Virus record (IMG/VR): IMGVR_UViG_2529293276_000003
Coordinates: 4,067-68,066 of that record
Length of the DNA stretch: 64,000 nt
Direction: 5' to 3' (one strand)
Origin: a virus
Taxonomy: Duplodnaviria; Caudoviricetes
Part shown: one piece after another, positions 31,114 through 64,000 of the stretch
How the letters are laid out: every line of letters starts with the position of its first letter
Position numbering within the stretch: the stretch's first letter is position 1
Notes under the pieces: model-generated
Database searches by the model: none
Seen by the model: only the letters and a program-made list of their open reading frames with translations
Told to the model about the DNA's origin: nothing
Program-made: the position numbers and the translations under genes

Positions 31114-31490
31114 ATCTCATCATATAAAGCAGAACCCCATGAACGGGGAAATATATCATAATACTTTAGATGGCTCATTTTTTTACTATCAAGCAACCTA
31201 TTATGCTTATTGTAATTTGCCCAACTGATCGTTGCGACAGTCTTGTTTGAGCATTCAATATAGCGTTTATACAGTGTATAACTACCTTGAGCTAAACCAT
31301 CTACTTTCTTATCTTGAGCTACAAAACGCTCCATCTGTACTTCATACTTAGTCCCAGTAACTTGTTTGGTTTTACTAGGCAGTAAATAGTATTCATACCC
31401 TTGATATGAACCTAAATATACATCTGCATGGGAACTGATAGCTAATGCTAAACCAGCAGTAAACATAAATAATTTGTTAAACATAAACAT
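31104..31490 (-). CDS. Secreted protein resembling the surface-adhesin E family
   Basis: Signal peptide ending SHA-D. The pattern YIECSNKT..SWANY...YYDIFPRSWGSALYDEIC, with two Cys, matches Adhesin_E-type proteins. Confidence 0.55.
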   Translation of the reverse strand: MFMFNKLFMFTAGLALAISSHADVYLGSYQGYEYYLLPSKTKQVTGTKYEVQMERFVAQDKKVDGLAQGSYTLYKRYIECSNKTVATISWANYNKHNRLLDSKKMSHLKYYDIFPRSWGSALYDEICR

Positions 31491-31518
31491 ATCCTACAGG
31501 TGTTGTTACTGTTTCATT

Positions 31519-31547
31519 ATTATATATAGGCTTTTGGTATTTATCTA
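31519..31547 (-). promoter_or_regulatory. Sigma70-type promoter of the leftward accessory operon
   Basis: Minus strand TAGATA-N17-TATAAT, about 28 nt upstream of ATG 31490. Confidence 0.55.
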
Positions 31548-31653
31548 CCAATAATTTATTTTTAGTATATTGGACAACTTTTACCTACAAACTATAAATT
31601 GGTTTAGTCGTAGTATCCTGACAGTCAGCAACCAAAAAGTAAAGTACGCCCCC

Positions 31654-31698
31654 CTACCTAAAAGAAGAAAAAGGATTCTTATTGACTACCTAAAAGAA
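31654..31698 (+). repeat. 13-bp direct repeat CTACCTAAAAGAA x2
   Basis: Copies at 31654-31666 and 31686-31698. The core CTACCTAAA recurs at 32818. Confidence 0.8.
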
Positions 31699-31700
31699 AG

Positions 31701-31739
31701 GTCTAAGCACTGGCATGCTTAGGGTGAGCAATGTCGCTC
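31701..31739 (+). promoter_or_regulatory. Candidate early (vRNAP) promoter A
   Basis: GTCTAA-hairpin-GGGTGAGCA-N5-GCTC, a motif shared with 32869-32905, just upstream of the first rightward gene. Confidence 0.45.
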
Positions 31740-31759
31740 GTAATTAACTGGAGTTTATT

Positions 31760-32020
31760 ATGGAACAGCAAGTAAGAAAAGAAAAAGTACAAAGAACATG
31801 GTTAGGCAATGTCTTCCACGCAATCAGTAAAGCTTTTTCAACTGCAGGTAACTTAGCCACTGCTACTGACAGGGCAGCAAAGAACTACGGAGCGTTAGCA
31901 GTAACGCAAAGTAGTCGTGCTGTTAAGAAGCTAGACGCAGATATTCGTAAAGAGTATGGCGTAAGCTTAGCAGAGTTCAACAAAGAAGTTGAAGATATGG
32001 TAGATGATCTTTACGATTGA
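31760..32020 (+). CDS. Early hypothetical protein
   Basis: 86 aa, GGAG RBS, followed by a terminator. Confidence 0.8.
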   Translation: MEQQVRKEKVQRTWLGNVFHAISKAFSTAGNLATATDRAAKNYGALAVTQSSRAVKKLDADIRKEYGVSLAEFNKEVEDMVDDLYD

Positions 32021-32036
32021 ATTCAGCTATCTTAAG

Positions 32037-32075
32037 AAAAGAGTCTAGCCTAGCACTAGGCTCTTTTCTTTTCTC
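32037..32075 (+). terminator. Intrinsic terminator
   Basis: AGCCTAG/CTAGGCT stem followed by a long T-rich tract. Confidence 0.65.
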
Positions 32076-32120
32076 TTTCTTTTTTACTATTAACATTCAT
32101 TCATTTAAGGAATATTTACC

Positions 32121-32390
32121 ATGCAAGCAGTTCAAGTACAGTTACATAATCTAGTAGTTGAGTGTAGTTCAGGTATGTACCTACTCGTTAGAGATGGGCA
32201 CATTGACATAGCTGATGCAGTAGAGTCATTGTTGGAATCTGCTAAACTTTATCTAGCATATCCACCTAGATTCATAGAGAGTGAGTACTACTACTCGGTA
32301 GTACCATTATCTACTATACATCAGATTCACTTAGAATCTGATTGTGGTGATTTCACCATCAGTTTCAATCCAATAGAGATATTGGATTGA
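32121..32390 (+). CDS. Early hypothetical protein
   Basis: 89 aa, AAGGA RBS. Confidence 0.75.
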   Translation: MQAVQVQLHNLVVECSSGMYLLVRDGHIDIADAVESLLESAKLYLAYPPRFIESEYYYSVVPLSTIHQIHLESDCGDFTISFNPIEILD

Positions 32391-32397
32391 TACATAT

Positions 32398-32433
32398 AAT
32401 ACCCTAGGCGTAATGCTTAGGGTATTTTTTTTT
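32398..32433 (+). terminator. Intrinsic terminator
   Basis: AATACCCTAGGC-GTAAT-GCTTAGGGTATT followed by a T run. Confidence 0.7.
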
Positions 32434-32868
32434 ACATCAAGTCATACAAACATAACTAACTACTATCAACAACAATAACCACTACTTACTAGCTAACCAC
32501 TATCACTAACAATAACAACCAACCACTCATAAACACAAACACAAGACACAAATGCAGACAGTACAGGTGCGGTAAATGCACTGAAAAGTTTTAGCAAATT
32601 CCTTCATGCTAGTTTCAGCAACTCATAGCTACTGAAGATATTTTCACCTTTAACTCTTGACATACTTACCTTACCAAATTTAGTACCAGTTTTGAAAGTT
32701 CTGATTCTGATTAAGTTATTACCATTCATCAGCATACTTACACTTACATTGATAAGTAATACACAACACTAATTCCTAGTACAACAGCTAATTAAAAAAA
32801 AATACTTTTCCTTTGTTCTACCTAAACCTTCCCTAAACCCTACCTTCTGTTTCTCTTGCGGTCTAATT

Positions 32869-32905
32869 GTCTAAACCCTTCGGGTTTTGGGTGAGCATTA
32901 TGCTC
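32869..32905 (+). promoter_or_regulatory. Candidate early (vRNAP) promoter B
   Basis: AAACCC-TTC-GGGTTT reads C-GAA-G on the template strand, like the N4 vRNAP GNA triloop. Embedded in GTCTAA...GGGTGAGCA..GCTC. Confidence 0.5.
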
Positions 32906-32936
32906 ATTCAATCATTCATTTTATAAGGATACTGTC

Positions 32937-33176
32937 ATGACTGAATTTACTACTCGCACTAACGCCACTCCAGCTGATCGTGAGCCAGCAGATCATTATG
33001 TAAATGTCTATTTTCAAGACCGTCAGATTGGCTATCTAGTACTTGACAAATTTGTTCAATTAGTAGAGTTCTTGCAGAAAGATGAACAGAATGCAACAAA
33101 GCTTATCAAAAATTGCACAGCAACTTACCGTGAGCGTGGCAAGTCTACTGTTAGCTTTGATTTGAGTAGCTTGTAG
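32937..33176 (+). CDS. ssDNA-binding RNAPII coactivator (N4 gp2 / Drc-like)
   Basis: ADHYVNVYF, QLVEFL and terminal SFDL follow the Drc pattern as recalled. Early position upstream of RNAP1. Confidence 0.55.
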   Translation: MTEFTTRTNATPADREPADHYVNVYFQDRQIGYLVLDKFVQLVEFLQKDEQNATKLIKNCTATYRERGKSTVSFDLSSL

Positions 33177-33180
33177 TAAT

Positions 33181-33210
33181 AAAACCCATAAGCAAATGCT
33201 TATGGGTTTT
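33181..33210. terminator. Terminator
   Basis: 13-bp perfect inverted repeat AAAACCCATAAGC/GCTTATGGGTTTT. Confidence 0.75.
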
Positions 33211-33244
33211 TGTTTATGTTTATTACTTATATAAGGATCGTACC

Positions 33245-33370
33245 ATGAAAGCATATCTTATCTTCGTAACACTTGGATTCTCAACTACTGTATGGGCAGA
33301 TAATGCGGTAGAAGCTTGTAAACAAGTATCACAACAAGGCTATAGCGTAACAAGCTGCCATCCTTTGTGA
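33245..33370 (+). CDS. 41-aa early protein (not in the ORF track)
   Basis: AAGGA RBS, MKAYLIFVTLGFSTTVWADNAVEACKQV..., bounded by two hairpins. Confidence 0.6.
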   Translation: MKAYLIFVTLGFSTTVWADNAVEACKQVSQQGYSVTSCHPL

Positions 33371-33374
33371 TTTG

Positions 33375-33404
33375 AACCCATTAGGCAATTACGCCTAATG
33401 GGTT
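33375..33404. terminator. Hairpin/terminator upstream of RNAP1
   Basis: AACCCATTAGGC-N6-GCCTAATGGGTT. Confidence 0.65.
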
Positions 33405-33436
33405 TGCTTTATAGTATAGACAGTACAGGTTACTAA

Positions 33437-34354
33437 ATGAATCAAAGACAGCTAGAAATACTAATGCACCCTAAGCATATTAGAAGAGATGTTAGTGAAA
33501 TTATTATCAAAAGCTTTAGTAAACAGATAGAACAATCTGTTAAAGCTATCCATAAATGGACAGAAGTATCTGAATATGAATCTAAAAACGCTCGTAAACA
33601 AGTACTATCTACACTGGACATACATAAACTAGTAGTAGATATATTTACTACTATTACAATGGTTACTCAAAAACCATTACCGTATATATCTGTAGCTTCT
33701 CAAATAGCTATAGATAATATGTCTAAACTAGACAGTATCAAGACTGCTTGTGAATTGATTGCATTGCTTCAACATACTAAACTATATGTAATCAATAAAA
33801 ACTACGATACTAGGTTAATTGAATCTCTTGTGGTACTGCCAAAAGATGCAGAAATTACTAAGCGTATTAGACTATCTTGTTTCTTACCACCTATGATAGA
33901 ACCACCTAAGCCAGTAAACAACAACAGACAAAGCGGTTATCTAACCATCAATGATCATATTGTATTAGGCTATAAAGAGAATCAACATAATCAAAGACTA
34001 TCCCTAGATGTGATTAATACTCTGAACCAAAACAAATATGTATTAGATAACTATGTTATACAGAACTTTGAAAAACCTTGGTTTAAAGAAGTGTTAGAAG
34101 AATATGAGCTGTCTTTACTAGATGCGATTGACCAACAAAAATACTATGACCAAACTGTTACCTTTGAAAAGTACAAAGAGCAGCTTAAAGTACTAACTGA
34201 GATAATCAAAGATAAACCAATCTACTTCAACCATAAATACGATAAGCGTGGTCGTATTTATACAGTTGGTTATCACTTCAACACTCAAGGTACAAGCTAT
34301 GAGAAAGCTTGTATTAACTTGTGTAAACAAGAGCTAATCACAGGTGAATTATGA
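33437..34354 (+). CDS. RNA polymerase II subunit 1 (N4 gp15-like)
   Basis: DKRGRIY (DxxGR) motif and NTQG..YEKA, corresponding to the N-terminal half of a T7-like RNAP. Confidence 0.93.
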   Translation: MNQRQLEILMHPKHIRRDVSEIIIKSFSKQIEQSVKAIHKWTEVSEYESKNARKQVLSTLDIHKLVVDIFTTITMVTQKPLPYISVASQIAIDNMSKLDSIKTACELIALLQHTKLYVINKNYDTRLIESLVVLPKDAEITKRIRLSCFLPPMIEPPKPVNNNRQSGYLTINDHIVLGYKENQHNQRLSLDVINTLNQNKYVLDNYVIQNFEKPWFKEVLEEYELSLLDAIDQQKYYDQTVTFEKYKEQLKVLTEIIKDKPIYFNHKYDKRGRIYTVGYHFNTQGTSYEKACINLCKQELITGEL

Positions 34355-34533
34355 TTTATACATTTGATAGGTATAAAAATGTATCAGTAAATGCAAGCAT
34401 TATCATGCTTGCTAATTCAGAAAATGAATCCTACTCTGTTGGATGTTTAATAAATGATGAAACCATTGAACAAGCATTAAACAGACTTGGGATAGATTTT
34501 GATACAAGATATCCTGATTACATCATTCAATAA
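34351..34533 (+). CDS. Hypothetical protein
   Basis: 60 aa, ATGA overlap with RNAP1. Confidence 0.6.
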   Translation: MIYTFDRYKNVSVNASIIMLANSENESYSVGCLINDETIEQALNRLGIDFDTRYPDYIIQ

Positions 34534-34551
34534 CTTATATAAGGAATAACT

Positions 34552-34827
34552 ATGAAAACCAAAGTAGTGAATAAATATAAAGAACCTTATGATGTTTATA
34601 TAGGGCGTGGTAGTAAGTGGGGTAATCCTTACCCTATTACAGCTAACCAAGATAGAAAAACAGTTATTCAAGCATACAAAAAATATCTGTTAAACAGTCC
34701 AGAACTATTAAAAGATTTACATGAACTAAAAGGTAAAACATTGGGTTGTTTTTGTAAACCTAAACCATGTCATGGGGATATTTTAATAGAGCTTATAAAC
34801 CAACTGGATAAACCAAAATCTGACTAA
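34552..34827 (+). CDS. DUF4326 domain protein
   Basis: VYIGRGSKWGNPY...LKGKTLGCFCKPKPCHGDIL. Confidence 0.9.
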   Translation: MKTKVVNKYKEPYDVYIGRGSKWGNPYPITANQDRKTVIQAYKKYLLNSPELLKDLHELKGKTLGCFCKPKPCHGDILIELINQLDKPKSD

Positions 34828-34841
34828 CTTAAGGGCATACC

Positions 34842-35102
34842 ATGACAATTATCAAAGCAACCCTATACAGTTACTATGAAAAAGAGTCTATAACTTTCTA
34901 CTTTTATACTCGTAAGAGTAAGATTAAAGTAAGCAAACTTGTAGATGAAATAAGTAAACACCTGCCTATAAGTGCAGACTTCTCTAAAGAGCAATACTAC
35001 TCTAAAACAATAAAATTAGAAGAGTTATTCTACGCAAATCTAGAAAATGATGAAGGTCAATTCTTATTAACATTTGACTTGATTAACCCTACTACAATTT
35101 AA
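34842..35102 (+). CDS. Hypothetical protein
   Basis: 86 aa with RBS. Confidence 0.65.
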   Translation: MTIIKATLYSYYEKESITFYFYTRKSKIKVSKLVDEISKHLPISADFSKEQYYSKTIKLEELFYANLENDEGQFLLTFDLINPTTI

Positions 35103-35107
35103 GTGAT

Positions 35108-35133
35108 ATAAGCCTAAGGTTACTTAGGCTTAT
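35108..35133 (+). terminator. Terminator
   Basis: ATAAGCCTAAG-GTTA-CTTAGGCTTAT followed by Ts. Confidence 0.65.
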
Positions 35134-35211
35134 TTTTGATTACTTCTTGTTGTAGTTTTTGTTAGCTAAGACAGCAGTAGAAATACTACTGGCTTTCTTT
35201 ATGGAATTTGT

Positions 35212-35478
35212 ATGGAACAAAATTTTAGGTATATATGGCTATCACTCAATGACATAACTGACTCTGAAATAGATCATTTAATTGAGTTAATAGGCTTCTA
35301 CGAAAATAATTCAAAGTACATAGTTTACTATCCGTCTATGGATTTCTTCCTTTGGCAAAAAGAAGTACCTGACCTAAGTAAAGATAAACGAGACCTTGTT
35401 ACCAATTCGTTTACTGAGTTCATGGCAATAGTTAATGAGTATGTATTAAACCAAATATTAGGAATAGATTATGAATGA
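35212..35478 (+). CDS. Tandem paralog 1 (unknown family)
   Basis: C-terminal SFTEFMAIVNEYVLNQILGI. Confidence 0.75.
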   Translation: MEQNFRYIWLSLNDITDSEIDHLIELIGFYENNSKYIVYYPSMDFFLWQKEVPDLSKDKRDLVTNSFTEFMAIVNEYVLNQILGIDYE

Positions 35479-35734
35479 CAAACTTTACTCCGTAATAAAA
35501 TCCACTGATTTAAACCAAGAACATCTGGAGATATTAAAATCAGATAAAAAAATCAGTCCTTATGTTCAAAACGACGATTACATTATTTACTGCAAAACAA
35601 GAGATTACTTCTTCCTTTTTAACCTTACACCAAGTGTGCGAATACTTTCTGACATATATACGGACTCAAACCAATTTATGGAAAGAGTCGCACAATACCA
35701 ACTGAATAGCACATTAGGACTTACAGATGAGTAA
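35471..35734 (+). CDS. Tandem paralog 2
   Basis: C-terminal DSNQFMERVAQYQLNSTLGL. Confidence 0.75.
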   Translation: MNDKLYSVIKSTDLNQEHLEILKSDKKISPYVQNDDYIIYCKTRDYFFLFNLTPSVRILSDIYTDSNQFMERVAQYQLNSTLGLTDE

Positions 35735-35987
35735 CTATTATTATTACGCTATTGTAACTGATAAATTATCTAAAAAAGATTATCAGCATATTAACAATTC
35801 ATTCACTATATCTGTTAATCAACCTAATCCTACATACTTCATATATGGCTTAGAAACAAAAAGAGCTTATCTCGTTAGTTATTCATTCTCACTAGATGAT
35901 GATTTAACTATTAAGTTCTTTCCTAATCTTAAAGCCTTGATTGAAGGTATTTATACCTATCGTTTAGATAAACTAATAGGAATATAA
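35727..35987 (+). CDS. Tandem paralog 3
   Basis: C-terminal NLKALIEGIYTYRLDKLIGI. Confidence 0.75.
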   Translation: MSNYYYYAIVTDKLSKKDYQHINNSFTISVNQPNPTYFIYGLETKRAYLVSYSFSLDDDLTIKFFPNLKALIEGIYTYRLDKLIGI

Positions 35988-35988
35988 A

Positions 35989-36249
35989 ATGAGATTGCAT
36001 AGAGATCCAATTTCCATAGCTACTAATACCCTTACCAAAGAAGAAAAAGAGATTTTAGCAGAATTACTTCAGATAGATATACCTAACAACACCAAAGCTA
36101 TTGTGTACTATTTTAACCTTGATGGTGCACAATGCTTCAATTTAGAAGTTTTTGCAAGATTATATGACCTTATAGACTCACTAGATGAGTTTATAGATAT
36201 GGTGATAGAAAACAGAATGAATCTTGTGGTAGGTCTATATGCTGAATAA
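35989..36249 (+). CDS. Tandem paralog 4
   Basis: C-terminal SLDEFIDMVIENRMNLVVGL. Confidence 0.75.
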   Translation: MRLHRDPISIATNTLTKEEKEILAELLQIDIPNNTKAIVYYFNLDGAQCFNLEVFARLYDLIDSLDEFIDMVIENRMNLVVGLYAE

Positions 36250-36523
36250 TCAAATTAGGTATCTTAGTATCTTGGTAGAAAATCTGACTGAAGAAGAGAA
36301 GTCTTTACTTTGCAGAAGGGCTGTAACCCTATCATGGTCCAACCCTGAAGCTATTAAATCATTCTGCTATGTTACACGGAGTAACAATATTTACCCCTTC
36401 TGTTCAGCAACAAATGAAAAGATTGAAGGAGAATATGTTTGCTCTTCTTATCAAGAATTTAATGAATTAATTAACCTTTGGAAACTAGACAGACTATTAG
36501 GAATAAACCATGAAAGTATTTAA
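36239..36523 (+). CDS. Tandem paralog 5
   Basis: C-terminal SYQEFNELINLWKLDRLLGI. Overlaps the RNAP2 start. Confidence 0.75.
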   Translation: MLNNQIRYLSILVENLTEEEKSLLCRRAVTLSWSNPEAIKSFCYVTRSNNIYPFCSATNEKIEGEYVCSSYQEFNELINLWKLDRLLGINHESI

Positions 36524-37718
36524 TCCAATGCAGTATCTAGCCATTGATATAGCTAATCACTTTGGCTTAGATAAGTTAAATTATGAAGAGCGTATTGATT
36601 GGGTTAAAACCAATATAAATAGCCTAGAGAATATGACAGAGCAAGCAGAAGAACCTATTTTATTTGCTAAAGCAGTGCATGCTTTAAGGCAAACACAACA
36701 AGGTATACCTACAGGACATACAGTAGCATTTGATGCTACTTGTTCAGGGTTACAGCTAATGAGTCTATTAACTAACTGTAAGAGTGGAATGTCTTTAACG
36801 GGTTTGATTGACCCTAATAAGCGTTCTGATGCTTATACGCAGATTACTGAGTATATCAATTACCTGCTAAAACAAGATGGTATTGATAGTGTAGAAGTTA
36901 GTCGTAAAGATGCTAAACAAGCGATTATGACAAGCTTATATGGCAGTAAAGCTAAACCAAAAGAATTATTTGGTAAACAGTTACTACCCTACTTCTATAA
37001 AGCTATGGATGAATGTTGTACAGGTGCTATGGATTTACTATCATGGCTATTAAACTCATGGCAAGATATCCAAGTACAATCTTGGGTATTGCCTGATGGT
37101 CATACAGCATATATCCCTACGATGCAGCAAGTTACTAAAAGAGTCAGTATCAATGAGCTAAACTATACCCCAGTCGTAACTTACTATGAAAACATAGCTT
37201 CAGAGAAAGGTATTGCTAACGCTGCTAATGTTGTACACTCAGTAGATGCACTCGTATTGCGTGAATTGGTTCGTAGGTGTAACTATCACAAAGGTGAACT
37301 TAAGACATTCTTACGCTTACATACTAACGCAGAACAAACCAAACAAGTAGATGATACATTATGGATTAATGAACGATTTAAAGCCACTGGTTTCGCTTCT
37401 ATCAGCTTTATTGAAGCTATTGAATACAATAACATTACTAAGGTCTCAAACGAGCTTAGAGAAGCTCTAGCGAACATCTGTGAGCACATATTAAGTCATC
37501 CTAAGTTTGAAGTAATCACTATCCATGATTCATTTGCTTGTTCACCTGTCAATATGCAACGACTTCGTGAACATTACAATAATATCTTAGTAGAGTTATA
37601 TGAATCACACACTTTAGATGATTTACTAAGCCAAGTGTATCAAACAGAAATTACTGTCAATGTAGGAGAGAAAACATTATCAGAAACTATCCGTAATAGT
37701 AACTACGGCATTAACTAA
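36510..37718 (+). CDS. RNA polymerase II subunit 2 (N4 gp16-like)
   Basis: Motif A FDATCSGLQ, motif B RKDAKQAIMTSLYG, motif C IHDSF. Confidence 0.95.
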   Translation: MKVFNPMQYLAIDIANHFGLDKLNYEERIDWVKTNINSLENMTEQAEEPILFAKAVHALRQTQQGIPTGHTVAFDATCSGLQLMSLLTNCKSGMSLTGLIDPNKRSDAYTQITEYINYLLKQDGIDSVEVSRKDAKQAIMTSLYGSKAKPKELFGKQLLPYFYKAMDECCTGAMDLLSWLLNSWQDIQVQSWVLPDGHTAYIPTMQQVTKRVSINELNYTPVVTYYENIASEKGIANAANVVHSVDALVLRELVRRCNYHKGELKTFLRLHTNAEQTKQVDDTLWINERFKATGFASISFIEAIEYNNITKVSNELREALANICEHILSHPKFEVITIHDSFACSPVNMQRLREHYNNILVELYESHTLDDLLSQVYQTEITVNVGEKTLSETIRNSNYGIN

Positions 37719-37724
37719 CAGTAC

Positions 37725-37738
37725 CCGCCTTTGGCGGT
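37725..37738 (+). promoter_or_regulatory. CCGCC-TTT-GGCGGT hairpin, promoter or terminator
   Basis: Identical core to 12549 (reverse) and 53581. Lies 6 nt after the RNAP2 stop. Confidence 0.45.
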
Positions 37739-37789
37739 TTTGTGGCTGTTTTAAAGCCATTATGAATGAATGATTAATGTATGATCCAA

Positions 37790-37830
37790 ATGGGTAGTGA
37801 GCCAGTGGCTTGCTACCCATATTTTTTTTT
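37790..37830 (+). terminator. Strong intrinsic terminator
   Basis: ATGGGTAGTGAGCC/GGCTTGCTACCCAT stem with G-U pairs, followed by a T9 tract. Confidence 0.75.
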
Positions 37831-37959
37831 GATTTTAACCAAACCTAAAGCCTAACTACTTAAAATTCGTAAAAAAGTACTAAAGATACCCTAAACGCTA
37901 TCACTATTTTCTTGGTGCTTTTACTTGTTAATTTACATTAATAAACAGTTTAAAACAGT

Positions 37960-38133
37960 ATGAATACAACAACCTTTTTAAAGTCCCTTCCAAAAGGAAG
38001 AATTACGATTTTTCCTTCCAAAGATCCAAAGTATTGGCTCTGTGAACATATAGTAGAAGAGTTACTCACAACCTTCTATTTTGATATGGATACCCAAAAA
38101 TGGGTATTTCTTTCAGCTACTAAACTTAACTAA
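37960..38133 (+). CDS. 57-aa hypothetical protein (not in the ORF track)
   Basis: Hand-translated MNTTTFLKSLPKGRITIFP...; RBS is weak. Confidence 0.4.
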   Translation: MNTTTFLKSLPKGRITIFPSKDPKYWLCEHIVEELLTTFYFDMDTQKWVFLSATKLN

Positions 38134-38145
38134 GAAAGGTGCATT

Positions 38146-38379
38146 ATGAAACTAAACACACATGATATTAACTGGATTGTCAATGAATACCAAGCAGGAC
38201 GCACAACCCAAGAAATTGCCATTGACACTGGTATGAGTAGACAGAATGTTAAACGAGCATTAGCAGAAGCAGGTTTACTGACTTTATCTTGGTATAAAAC
38301 CAAAGAAGAAAATAAGATGCTAATTGCCTTGGCTTCTAAAGGCATTAGTAATGTAACCCAGTTGCTAGAGAGACTATAA
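38146..38379 (+). CDS. Helix-turn-helix DNA-binding protein
   Basis: YQAGRTTQEIAIDTGMSRQNVKRAL. Confidence 0.8.
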   Translation: MKLNTHDINWIVNEYQAGRTTQEIAIDTGMSRQNVKRALAEAGLLTLSWYKTKEENKMLIALASKGISNVTQLLERL

Positions 38380-38388
38380 GGAATAATT

Positions 38389-38769
38389 ATGGGCTTAGAT
38401 ACATATTTATATGCAATAGCTGAAGACAAAGATAACCGTGATGAAGAAGGTAGACGACGCTTTGAAAAGGATTTAGAAACAATTACTTATTGGCGTAAAT
38501 GTTATCCTTTATGTGATTATTTTTTATCCATGAAAAGTGATCTTCTTGATGAAGATGGGAACTATGAATACATTCCCATTACTCAAGGTGAGTTATCAGA
38601 GTTTTTAGATATAAGCCTAGACGACTACTTTAATAACTCAGTGCTGGGTGTAGATGAAGAAGATGAATACTCTAAAATGTATGATGGTGATATAGAAACG
38701 CTAAGGCAAGCTATAGACCGTATGAAACAGTTACCTAATCATAATTTCTATCTTTTTAATTGGTGGTAA
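38389..38769 (+). CDS. Conserved phage hypothetical protein (MGLD...YWRK type)
   Basis: MGLDTYLY and TYWRK motifs. Confidence 0.75.
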   Translation: MGLDTYLYAIAEDKDNRDEEGRRRFEKDLETITYWRKCYPLCDYFLSMKSDLLDEDGNYEYIPITQGELSEFLDISLDDYFNNSVLGVDEEDEYSKMYDGDIETLRQAIDRMKQLPNHNFYLFNWW

Positions 38770-58675: not shown

Positions 58676-59371
58676 ATGAGTTTTCTATCTAACCTAAGCT
58701 ACCAAGACAACATCAATGACGACAAAGATACACTAGGTGGTAGCTTTACAATTCTAGAATCAGGTGTTTATGATGCTACTGTCAAATATGCCTATCTATC
58801 ACAAGCAAAATCAGGTGCAGGTGCAGTAAACTTTGAATTTGATGTGGATGGTAAAACCATTAAAGAAACCATGTATGTAACTAACCGTGAAGGTAAAAAT
58901 TACTATGAACGAAACGGTCAGCGTAACTATCTACCTTCATTTATTAATGCTGATGCGATTAGTTTATTTACTACTGGTAAAGCTTTGTTTGAGCAAAAAG
59001 AAGAAACCAAAGTTATTAACTTGTATAACTTTGATGTTAAAAAAGAAGTACCTACTGAAGTACCTATGCTAACTGCAATGATTGGTAAAACAGTTAAGCT
59101 AGGTATCCTAAAAGAAAAGGTATTTAAACAAACCAAAGATAACTCAGGTAACTATGTAGACACTGATGAGACTCGTGAACAAAACAGTATCAATAAAGTG
59201 TTCTCAGCAAAAGACAACCGTACAGTTAATGAAGTCCGTGCAGAAATTGATTCTGCTCAATTCATGAACGATTGGCTTGAAAAGTGGGAAGGTCAAGTAT
59301 CAGATAAAACTGCTAACAAGAAACCTACTGCTTCTGCACCTGCTAAGAAAACTTCATCACTATTTGCATAA
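58676..59371 (+). CDS. Single-stranded DNA-binding protein (N4 gp45-like)
   Basis: KDTLGG..LESGVY..TVKYAY...SGA and the C-terminal KTSSLFA tail. Confidence 0.85.
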   Translation: MSFLSNLSYQDNINDDKDTLGGSFTILESGVYDATVKYAYLSQAKSGAGAVNFEFDVDGKTIKETMYVTNREGKNYYERNGQRNYLPSFINADAISLFTTGKALFEQKEETKVINLYNFDVKKEVPTEVPMLTAMIGKTVKLGILKEKVFKQTKDNSGNYVDTDETREQNSINKVFSAKDNRTVNEVRAEIDSAQFMNDWLEKWEGQVSDKTANKKPTASAPAKKTSSLFA

Positions 59372-63001: not shown

Positions 63002-64000
63002 TTAATTAAAGTAACTGGCTAATTCATCAACAGTAGGGTTATAGTAAACATTTACTAAGGTTTTAATATCCTTATGTCCTGTAATTTTAGCCAGCTTTTC
63101 TACAGGGATATTTAAATCCCTAACCATCCTTGATATGGCTTCATGTCTTGTATCATGAAAATGTAAATCTTTAATCCATAATTGCTGTCGCATTCTTCTC
63201 CATATCAAATTAAAATTATCTAAGCGAATACAAAATAACCTGTCTGTTAATGGGGTAACTTGTTTTAGCATTTGTCTTGCTGTTGTATTTAAGATCACAT
63301 TCCTAGCCATACCATTTTTACTATGACTAATATGCACATAGTTTTCATGGATATGGTCTTTAGTAAGTGCTAATATCTCTCCCCTACGCATGGCTGTTTG
63401 CAGGGCAAATAAGAAACACCAACCCACTTGTTTTCTACAAGTATCAGGAACATCCCCTAAAGTATAACCTGTCCATTGTAGTATTTTGGCTTCTTCTTCA
63501 AGGGTAATTCTTCTATCCCTAGAAGCTGGTTTACTGGGTCGTTTGACTTTATTCATTGGATTGGTTTCAAAAATATATAACTCATTAATTGCATAATTAA
63601 ATACACAATTTAAAAAAGATAATTCAAGTAATACAGAACCTTGAGATACCTGTAATAAGCGTCTGTCCCTGTATGCAGATAATTGTTTGGGGGTAATTTG
63701 TGTAATTGCAGTTGTAACCAAATCAGGGTGCTGTTTCACCATAATATTAATAATACTCTCAGCTCTTTTACCGTTTTTACGCAAGCTTAGTACTTTATTT
63801 CTGTATATATCAATCACTTCTAATAAACTCAGGTTACTTTGTTCATTAAAATAAAGCAGTTCTTGGCACAGTGTATTAAACCAGTCTATACATTCTTGTT
63901 CTGATGATTTCGTTGCTGAGTATCTTTTACCATGTATCATGGTTTGGATACGATACCTACAACCCACCTGACTAATCTTAGGGATATTTTTAAGTACCAT
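63002..64000 (-). CDS. int: Tyrosine recombinase / phage integrase (start at the window edge, may extend further)
   Basis: TAMRRGEI (R), HFHDTRH (HxxR), ITGH (H) and NVYY (Y). N-terminal arm-binding-like beta segment. Confidence 0.93.
   Translation of the reverse strand: MVLKNIPKISQVGCRYRIQTMIHGKRYSATKSSEQECIDWFNTLCQELLYFNEQSNLSLLEVIDIYRNKVLSLRKNGKRAESIINIMVKQHPDLVTTAITQITPKQLSAYRDRRLLQVSQGSVLLELSFLNCVFNYAINELYIFETNPMNKVKRPSKPASRDRRITLEEEAKILQWTGYTLGDVPDTCRKQVGWCFLFALQTAMRRGEILALTKDHIHENYVHISHSKNGMARNVILNTTARQMLKQVTPLTDRLFCIRLDNFNLIWRRMRQQLWIKDLHFHDTRHEAISRMVRDLNIPVEKLAKITGHKDIKTLVNVYYNPTVDELASYFN

Follow-up and report, generated by a model that had tools for sequence, protein, structure and literature searches.

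We have analysed a 64,000-nucleotide stretch of DNA (hereafter the window; bases 4067-68066 of the 68-kb IMG/VR record IMGVR_UViG_2529293276_000003, classed as a provirus) with a focus on five small tandem genes, here named p1 to p5, which lie between the genes of the two subunits of an N4-like phage RNA polymerase II (RNAPII), the small subunit RNAP1 and the large subunit RNAP2. The window derives from a temperate N4-like phage (Schitoviridae) of Moraxella. It carries a giant virion RNA polymerase open reading frame (ORF) on the minus strand, a gene for an N4SSB-like protein and, at the window edge, a tyrosine integrase gene (63002-64000, minus strand; phrog_1, E = 9e-49). The RNAP1-RNAP2 interval (the slot) and its borders have the following features:

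33437..34354, plus strand: RNAP1, RNAPII small subunit (N4 gp15-like; phrog_2166 "N4-like RNA polymerase", E = 5e-58), left border of the slot
34351..34533, plus strand: c60, ORF of 60 amino acids (aa) overlapping the RNAP1 stop; negative for family membership by profile
34552..34827, plus strand: DUF4326 protein (PF14216, E = 1e-26)
34842..35102, plus strand: c86, 86-aa ORF unrelated to the p1-p5 family
35108..35140, plus strand: terminator-like hairpin with an 11-bp stem, a 4-nt loop and a T run behind it, dividing the RNAP1...c86 unit from the p1...RNAP2 unit
35212-35478, plus strand: p1, 88 aa, isoelectric point (pI) 4.2; the sole paralog intact in every relative examined
35471-35734, plus strand: p2, 87 aa; lost in relatives L014 and L015, frameshifted in L012
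35727-35987, plus strand: p3, 86 aa, pI 7.9; the most diverged paralog and the sole non-acidic one (protein P0043 among its evidence)
35989-36249, plus strand: p4, 86 aa, pI 4.4; family member by profile
36239-36523, plus strand: p5, 94 aa; the closest of the five to the copies in Moraxella sp. ZJ142, with the highest ratio of nonsynonymous to synonymous substitution rates (dN/dS)
36510-37718, plus strand: RNAP2, RNAPII large subunit (N4 gp16-like; phrog_2051, E = 2e-131; PF00940), final cistron of the coupled chain
37725..37830, plus strand: two terminator-like hairpins with T runs, closing the p1-p5-RNAP2 unit

A preliminary description of this DNA had reported five overlapping or abutting plus-strand ORFs of 86-94 aa at 35212-36523, coupled to RNAP2, and all five were found at these coordinates. 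p1 and p2 overlap by 8 nt, as do p2 and p3; p3 and p4 are 1 nt apart; p4 and p5 overlap by 11 nt and p5 and RNAP2 by 14 nt.

The description had also proposed that the five ORFs are paralogs sharing three motifs. Every motif string that it quoted was present letter for letter, and the paralogy was confirmed by two approaches. In Smith-Waterman comparisons against 1000 shuffles, the z-scores were 9.2 for p1-p2, 8.1 for p1-p4, 7.4 for p1-p5, 6.8 for p2-p4, 3.6 for p4-p5, 3.2 for p2-p3 and 2.4 for p3-p5, while all control pairs with three neighbouring small ORFs stayed below 1.6. In the leave-one-group-out test, a profile made from four ortholog groups was scored on the omitted group, yielding 43.8 bits for p1, 32.6 for p2, 21.3 for p3, 32.5 for p4 and 29.4 for p5, against at most 14.2 bits for the best of 2000 shuffles. 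By these sequence scores, p3 appears as the weakest yet clear member of the family. The paralogs share 15-35% identity with one another and keep their pattern of hydrophobic residues and their predicted secondary structure in common, also across lineages. Each of them has its own ortholog group (63-100% identity) in N4-like prophages of Moraxella catarrhalis, the named orthologs belonging to assemblies with contigs of up to 755 kb; an identical p5 protein was present on 157 contigs. The existence of these groups, together with a dN/dS below 1 for p1-p4, supported that the genes are coding. All of the proteins except p3 are acidic (pI 4.2-5.1). A sixth family copy was not detectable anywhere in the window; the c60 ORF, which contains an internal "LNRLGID", was considered as such a copy and rejected (z < 1 and no match to the family hidden Markov model, HMM).

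No known family could be assigned to these proteins, in agreement with the preliminary description. Searches of p1-p5 against Pfam-A, PHROGs v4, PADLOC and PDB sequences gave nothing past the curated cut-offs; the best Pfam E-value was 0.0045, under the gathering score, no PDB sequence was found at E <= 10, and the HMM retrieved no characterised family. A 38-member profile was run against 1.84 billion (1.84e9) protein representatives and returned ten matches at E <= 0.001. These comprised the five ortholog groups, two deletion derivatives, one repeat artefact and a pair of diverged members located side by side on a metagenome scaffold of 1 kb. As this search found only the family's own lineage, the artefact aside, we consider the family to be lineage-restricted. 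The locus had no megablast match among GenBank phages, and scanning IMG/VR with p5 recovered only a near-identical contig. A scan of GTDB genomes with a single RNAP2 sequence gave no match; the alignment-based scan did recover loci. In the ESM Atlas, p1 had no usable match and p5 matched only unnamed viral clusters at 0.79-0.80, within the chance range. No RNA run contained the locus, the best match, a groundwater metatranscriptome, sharing 0.05 of words.

We have modelled p1 with AlphaFold2 (AF2) using the family alignment, with a predicted local distance difference test score (pLDDT) of 83.7 and a predicted TM-score (pTM) of 0.74. The model has the order strand 7-11, helix 17-27, strands 36-40, 45-49 and 61-64, and helix 67-83 (beta-alpha-beta3-alpha), the three motifs of the preliminary description falling on helix 1, strand 2 and the C-terminal helix. 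Searching the PDB with this model revealed no solved fold relative: the best Foldseek E-value was 0.5, and the best VIA Z of 3.6 (antitoxin ATfaRel2) was within noise. The PDB fold searches of the p1 model returned no characterised anti-defence protein (Ocr, Ard, Acr and similar), a dedicated anti-defence library not having been searched. Among BFVD models, similarity was found to small uncharacterised proteins of Acinetobacter phages (Foldseek E from 2e-3 to 0.3, TM 0.4-0.65), with several matches each for the genomes of two N4-like phages, Presley and VB_ApiP_XC38. Among cultured phages, Presley and XC38 are those most closely related to the Moraxella proviruses; the latter have been grouped, as integrated N4-like elements, beside the Acinetobacter genera Exceevirus and Presleyvirus (PMC10654107), and the nearest cultured RNAP2 sequences are those of Acinetobacter N4-like phages (~40% identity). 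The Presley and XC38 small proteins gave no sequence-level signal to the Moraxella family, and a tentative mapping by length placed the matching ones mostly downstream of RNAP2, outside the slot. We take this predicted resemblance as a lead, the TM-scores being modest for so small a fold.

The early region (31400-38500) was rich in terminator-like hairpins with T runs on the plus strand, with 16 found versus 3.0 expected. Hairpins at 32034, 32398, 32887, 33181, 33373, 35108, 37725 and 37790 split it into short units, and those at 35108-35133 and in 37725-37820 (two hairpins) bracket p1-p5 and RNAP2. From the sequence, p1-p5 and RNAP2 are therefore predicted to form one transcription unit between hairpin terminators. 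Sigma-70-like promoter matches were no commoner than in shuffled sequence (28 versus 30.7). A promoter-like word shared upstream of p1 and RNAP1, (A/T)AGACAG(C/T)A, was also evaluated and discarded, since it was not enriched (5 versus 3.6 expected).

The only invariant residue of the family other than Met is a glycine, G84 in p1 numbering, and its codon appears to double as the Shine-Dalgarno (SD) sequence of the following cistron. The C-terminal "LG(I/L)" is encoded by TTA-GGA-ATA in p1, TTA-GGA-CTT in p2, ATA-GGA-ATA in p3, GTA-GGT-CTA in p4 and TTA-GGA-ATA in p5, which sets (T)AGGA or TAGGT 7-10 nt ahead of the next ATG at each junction:

35461, plus strand: p1 Gly codon GGA, SD for p2, ATG 10 nt downstream
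35717, plus strand: p2 Gly codon GGA, SD for p3, 10 nt
35979, plus strand: p3 Gly codon GGA, SD for p4, 10 nt
36232, plus strand: p4 Gly codon GGT, within "TAGGT", 7 nt ahead of the p5 ATG
36500, plus strand: p5 Gly codon GGA, SD for RNAP2, 10 nt; the RNAP2 SD thus lies inside p5

Since each SD is contained in the C-terminal codons of the upstream gene, the p1...RNAP2 array would be a translationally coupled chain.

We have then investigated if the same arrangement occurs in other slot genes. In ~20 N4-like phages, 53 genes were found whose C-termini end in hydrophobic-hydrophobic-(G/N)-(I/V/L). When the Gly codon was GGA or GGG, an ATG followed 6-13 nt downstream in 32/34 cases; when it was GGC or GGT, or when the residue was Asn, 17/19 genes had no following ATG or had one at a distance of 17 nt or more, with an SD of its own behind the stop. 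The association between codon and ATG was strong (Fisher p = 8e-10, with cases that are not independent), and GGA and GGG together made up just 40% of the codons at other Gly positions of the same genes. The five window genes follow this rule of C-terminal end and SD distance (10, 10, 10, 7 and 10 nt, p4 with GGT in TAGGT). Gly and Asn are the classical C-cap residues of helices. The protein thus probably needs G or N at the helix end, with the SD use laid over that requirement. Reuse of the C-cap codon as an SD gives part of the "in-register" C-terminal motif a nucleic-acid explanation, which calls for caution when functions are assigned from motifs in tightly packed phage operons. The remainder of the motif, S-x-x-E-F-x-E-x-V...L-N, is conserved at the protein level and corresponds to a predicted core helix in the p1 model.

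These data bear on the proposal that the proteins combine a constant docking helix with a variable face. The N- and C-terminal segments were indeed conserved and the middle variable. A docking role was not upheld: in the AF2 model, the C-terminal helix belongs to the fold itself and packs onto the sheet, and the terminal Gly codon is the putative SD of the next gene. The Gly conservation needs no docking partner, as its codon would be the ribosome-binding site of the following cistron.

Comparison with M. catarrhalis relatives having an RNAP2 93-99% identical to that of the window revealed that the array varies between 2 and 5 copies among near-identical phages. The window and L003 have p1-p5; in L004-L007, p3 has a 28-aa in-frame deletion; in L012, p2 and p3 are frameshifted; L013 has p1 and p2 only; and L014 and L015 lack p2. 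A separate expansion was found in a prophage of Moraxella sp. ZJ142, whose RNAP2 is 59% identical to that of the window. There, the same slot contains seven full copies and one truncated copy of the family, of 85-110 aa, with a C-terminal "CNSxxEFxExV...LLGI" as in the window family, family HMM E-values from 1.6e-10 to 3.4e-4 and z up to 14 against p5. The description of the family as expanded thus applies both to the five window copies and to ZJ142. The nearest outgroup, L016 (RNAP2 67% identical), lacks the family and has unrelated genes of 61, 62 and 124 aa in the slot, and the slot of M. macacae is a 3-bp gap, likewise without the family. We searched 98 N4-like loci, the majority of which had been recovered from IMG/VR and GTDB genomes by means of an RNAP2 profile, and found family members only in the ZJ142 loci. 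The family is therefore limited to a subset of the N4-like prophages of Moraxella, in which it has expanded on separate occasions and has often been lost. The ZJ142 element was present both on a 45.8-kb contig (L019) and inside a 2.27-Mb chromosomal contig (L020) with identical slot sequences, which could reflect excision or replication of the element or a duplication in the assembly. A second slot family, unrelated to the p family, was also apparent: a 136-aa ZJ142 protein (L017 2140-2550) is homologous to the 124-aa protein next to RNAP2 in the outgroup (L016 4566-4940; z = 19).

The genes evolve fast, as the preliminary description had supposed. Median pairwise dN/dS (NG86; 3-6 recombining sequences per gene) was 0.51 for p1, 0.56 for p2, 0.38 for p3, 0.36 for p4 and 1.1 for p5, versus 0.16 for RNAP1 and RNAP2. 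The middle third had the highest dN in all five paralogs, with a ratio of means of ~2 in p2 and p5. Both terminal segments had lower ratios in p2-p4, the C-terminal ratio in p1 and p5 being ~1 at low divergence; the N-terminal segment was conserved in p2 and p5 and the C-terminal one in p2. Given so few and recombining sequences, this pattern is suggestive and falls short of a test for positive selection.

In 92 N4-like loci, the median RNAP1-RNAP2 gap was 609 bp and the extremes were 3 and 4677 bp. In the so-called G7C-type organisation, zero to eight unrelated spacer genes, often homing endonucleases, separate the two subunit genes (Amgarten et al. 2017, PMC5418858). The window, with eight ORFs between RNAP1 and RNAP2, has this organisation. 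Its spacer differs from the unrelated ones described in that paper in containing tandem paralogs of one undescribed family, coupled to RNAP2. Many of the large spacers also proved to be tandem paralog arrays (L039, L069, L070, L060, L024, L047, L064, L075 and others), a feature absent from PMC5418858. In the uncultured N4-like phages L069 (1336-5175), L070 (2330-4096), L039 (2583-5950), L047, L064, L075, L060 and L024, the paralogs have 60-160 aa. Many array proteins end in "PxEF(R/K)xxLLLLG(V/I)", and the other slot-array proteins had no Pfam or PHROG match. The C-terminal end pattern was found in 64/206 small slot ORFs, compared with 60/1621 small ORFs flanking the polymerase genes and 5/206 shuffled slot ORFs. 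Homing endonucleases are known to target this polymerase locus (PMC5418858), and in Acinetobacter phage XC38 (L009 5554-7628) RNAP2 is annotated in two pieces around an endonuclease gene, with another HNH gene after it.

We favour, with moderate confidence, the interpretation that p1-p5 are genuine tandem paralogs of an undescribed, lineage-restricted family of small alpha/beta proteins (about 86-110 aa), carried as cargo of the RNAP1-RNAP2 spacer and acting as accessory early proteins. Duplication of one unit would copy the gene plus the start signal for whatever follows. Most likely, the proteins would be early-acting, dispensable and fast-diversifying binders of host or competitor factors, serving host takeover or counter-defence; a scaffold may be formed by the aromatic strand together with both conserved helices, and the specificity surface by the variable middle, comprising sheet and loops. 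We infer the timing of expression, the binding function and the nature of the targets from the orphan status of the family, its copy-number flux, the dN/dS raised in the middle, the acidity and the place in an early-middle unit. That p2, p3 or p3-p5 are lost or broken where RNAP2 is 93-99% identical favours dispensable accessory proteins over obligatory RNAPII subunits. Three observations weigh on the other side. The tight coupling to RNAP2 in two lineages could mean a polymerase-related role; the raised dN/dS, obtained from small samples of recombining sequences, could be relaxed constraint and not diversifying selection; and p3, modelled alone with 8 orthologs, gave an uninformative pLDDT of 40.7, its secondary-structure order agreeing with that of p1.

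The first of these observations leads to the alternative that the paralogs are accessory or specificity factors of RNAPII, perhaps with different promoter sets for each paralog. N4 gp2 and LUZ7 Drc recruit the split polymerase to middle promoters, and the Moraxella proteins would be their functional analogues. Co-transcription and translational coupling with RNAP2 are compatible with such a role, the more so as two lineages show them although their RNAP2 proteins share only 59% identity. The small early ORFs of the window match no annotated PHROG family, and hence none was recognised as a homologue of gp2 or Drc. N4-like clades use unrelated cofactors, many having no gp2 homologue, and gp2 is also acidic, with a pI of 5.2 (PMC7145618). 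Like the Moraxella proteins, gp2 and Drc (gp14) are small early proteins, tied to RNAPII in their case; both are clade-specific and mutually unrelated (PMC7145618), so that a third unrelated cofactor is conceivable. However, gp2 and Drc are single-copy and encoded upstream of RNAP1, outside the slot, whereas the Moraxella proteins are multi-copy and individually dispensable, and the family is missing from L016, M. macacae and the other N4-like loci with this polymerase among the 98 searched. The losses beside a nearly unchanged RNAP2 also argue against a cofactor. When N4 gp1-gp14 were compared with the family HMM, none showed similarity (the best E-value was 0.24, and that of gp2 1.3). Drc is basic and dimeric, with an apparently different fold, and it was not among the PDB matches listed for the p1 model in Foldseek or VIA. 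In relatives, RNAP2 is fused to DUF4326 and never to a family member. We therefore regard cofactors as unlikely. A role in cis is more doubtful still. According to it, the array would be mainly a ladder of coupled cistrons that tunes how much RNAP2 is translated, or when, in relation to RNAP1, and the proteins would have little function of their own. The SD inside the upstream C-terminal codons at every junction, 7-10 nt before the ATG, the RNAP2 SD inside p5, the p5 dN/dS of ~1 and the tolerated copy-number changes would all be expected from such a ladder. Yet p1-p4 are under purifying selection (dN/dS 0.36-0.56), the hydrophobic pattern and predicted secondary structure persist at 15-35% paralog identity and across lineages, and RNAP2 of L013 follows p2 after a 70-nt untranslated gap, so that the coupling to p5 is not required.

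The phage is temperate, with an integrase gene at 63002-64000, its relatives occur within Moraxella contigs of 0.4-2.3 Mb and such proviruses have been reported (PMC10654107), all of which is compatible with p1-p5 being prophage-expressed genes for lysogenic conversion or superinfection exclusion. We consider this very unlikely, as the genes are part of an early-middle polymerase operon that is flanked by terminators and lacks a distinctive sigma-70 promoter (28 promoter-like matches versus 30.7 in shuffled sequence) and the same kind of array is found in many N4-like contigs without sign of lysogeny. A stronger alternative, tentative and in our view still rather improbable, is that the Moraxella family is a diverged branch of a slot superfamily spanning the Schitoviridae, with the "PxEF(R/K)xxLLLLG(V/I)" arrays (L069, L070, L047, L064 and others) and a common function. 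The slot, the size range and the tandem coupled layout are shared. So are the ending hydrophobic-hydrophobic-(G/N)-(I/V/L) in the last 14 residues, with an "EF" upstream in the helix, and the use of its GGA/GGG Gly codon as the next SD; moreover, the p1 model resembles small proteins of Presley, XC38 and other Acinetobacter phages. Against this, neither profile-profile nor profile-sequence comparison of the two groups gave a homology signal (hhalign probability ~1%, HMM E > 0.1 in both directions), and the helix lengths differ, as does the F-to-G spacing (14 versus 8 residues). The N-terminal motifs also differ, the other arrays having no N-terminal helix motif and having Trp-rich motifs that are missing from the Moraxella proteins. 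Common ancestry is possible, and convergence of helix C-cap and embedded SD would suffice for the shared ending. One further step, to which we assign only a slim chance, would be a single ancient, hyper-diverged superfamily of interchangeable transcription modulators, with a conserved C-terminal helix that docks on a polymerase, either the split RNAPII or that of the host. If so, the proteins would for instance be promoter-class selectors or inhibitors of the host RNA polymerase, and their linkage to RNAP2 would be functional and not accidental.

If p1-p5 were counter-defence or host-shutoff factors, the paralog sets carried by different Moraxella phages would map onto strain differences of the host, a human respiratory pathogen. 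N4-like phages are therapy candidates as well as transcription models, and their early ORFans are nearly all uncharacterised. The present family is clean and testable, with a confident model and no solved-structure relative. The SD embedded behind the most conserved residue, the second expansion in ZJ142 and the recurrence of tandem coupled arrays in the slot across the Schitoviridae are new here, and the RNAP1-RNAP2 spacer emerges as a recurrent nursery of tandem small-protein arrays across the virus family.

We have also looked at the genes around the array. The RNAP2 N-terminal extensions of relatives were considered as possible fused family members and rejected, being DUF4326 or other unrelated domains. 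The free-standing DUF4326 protein of the window (34552-34827) corresponds to an N-terminal fusion on RNAP2 in related Moraxella phages (e.g. P0081 and P0067; P0088, P0091, P0096, P0097, P0100 and P0106 are also listed with the DUF4326 or RNAP2-extension observation). A 497-aa "DUF4326 domain-containing protein" of Moraxella bovoculi is 84% identical to it over the first 89 aa, and N4 gp12 is likewise a DUF4326 protein. Such a fusion points to a functional connection of DUF4326 with RNAPII. Different N-terminal extensions of RNAP2, of 130-148 aa, are found in other relatives.

A 158-aa protein, P0042, found on contigs of up to 466 kb, is an in-frame joining of p1 residues 1-53 (35212-35370) with the C-terminal portion of the N4SSB-like protein (59030-59368), which implies a deletion of ~23.7 kb and hence that some genomes retain defective prophage remnants. 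Finally, relatives carry a 94-aa gene that the window does not have (L003 6541-6825; also L004-L007 and L013-L015), to which the family HMM gave no match. It is located between a gene of 126-131 aa and an AAA ATPase gene.

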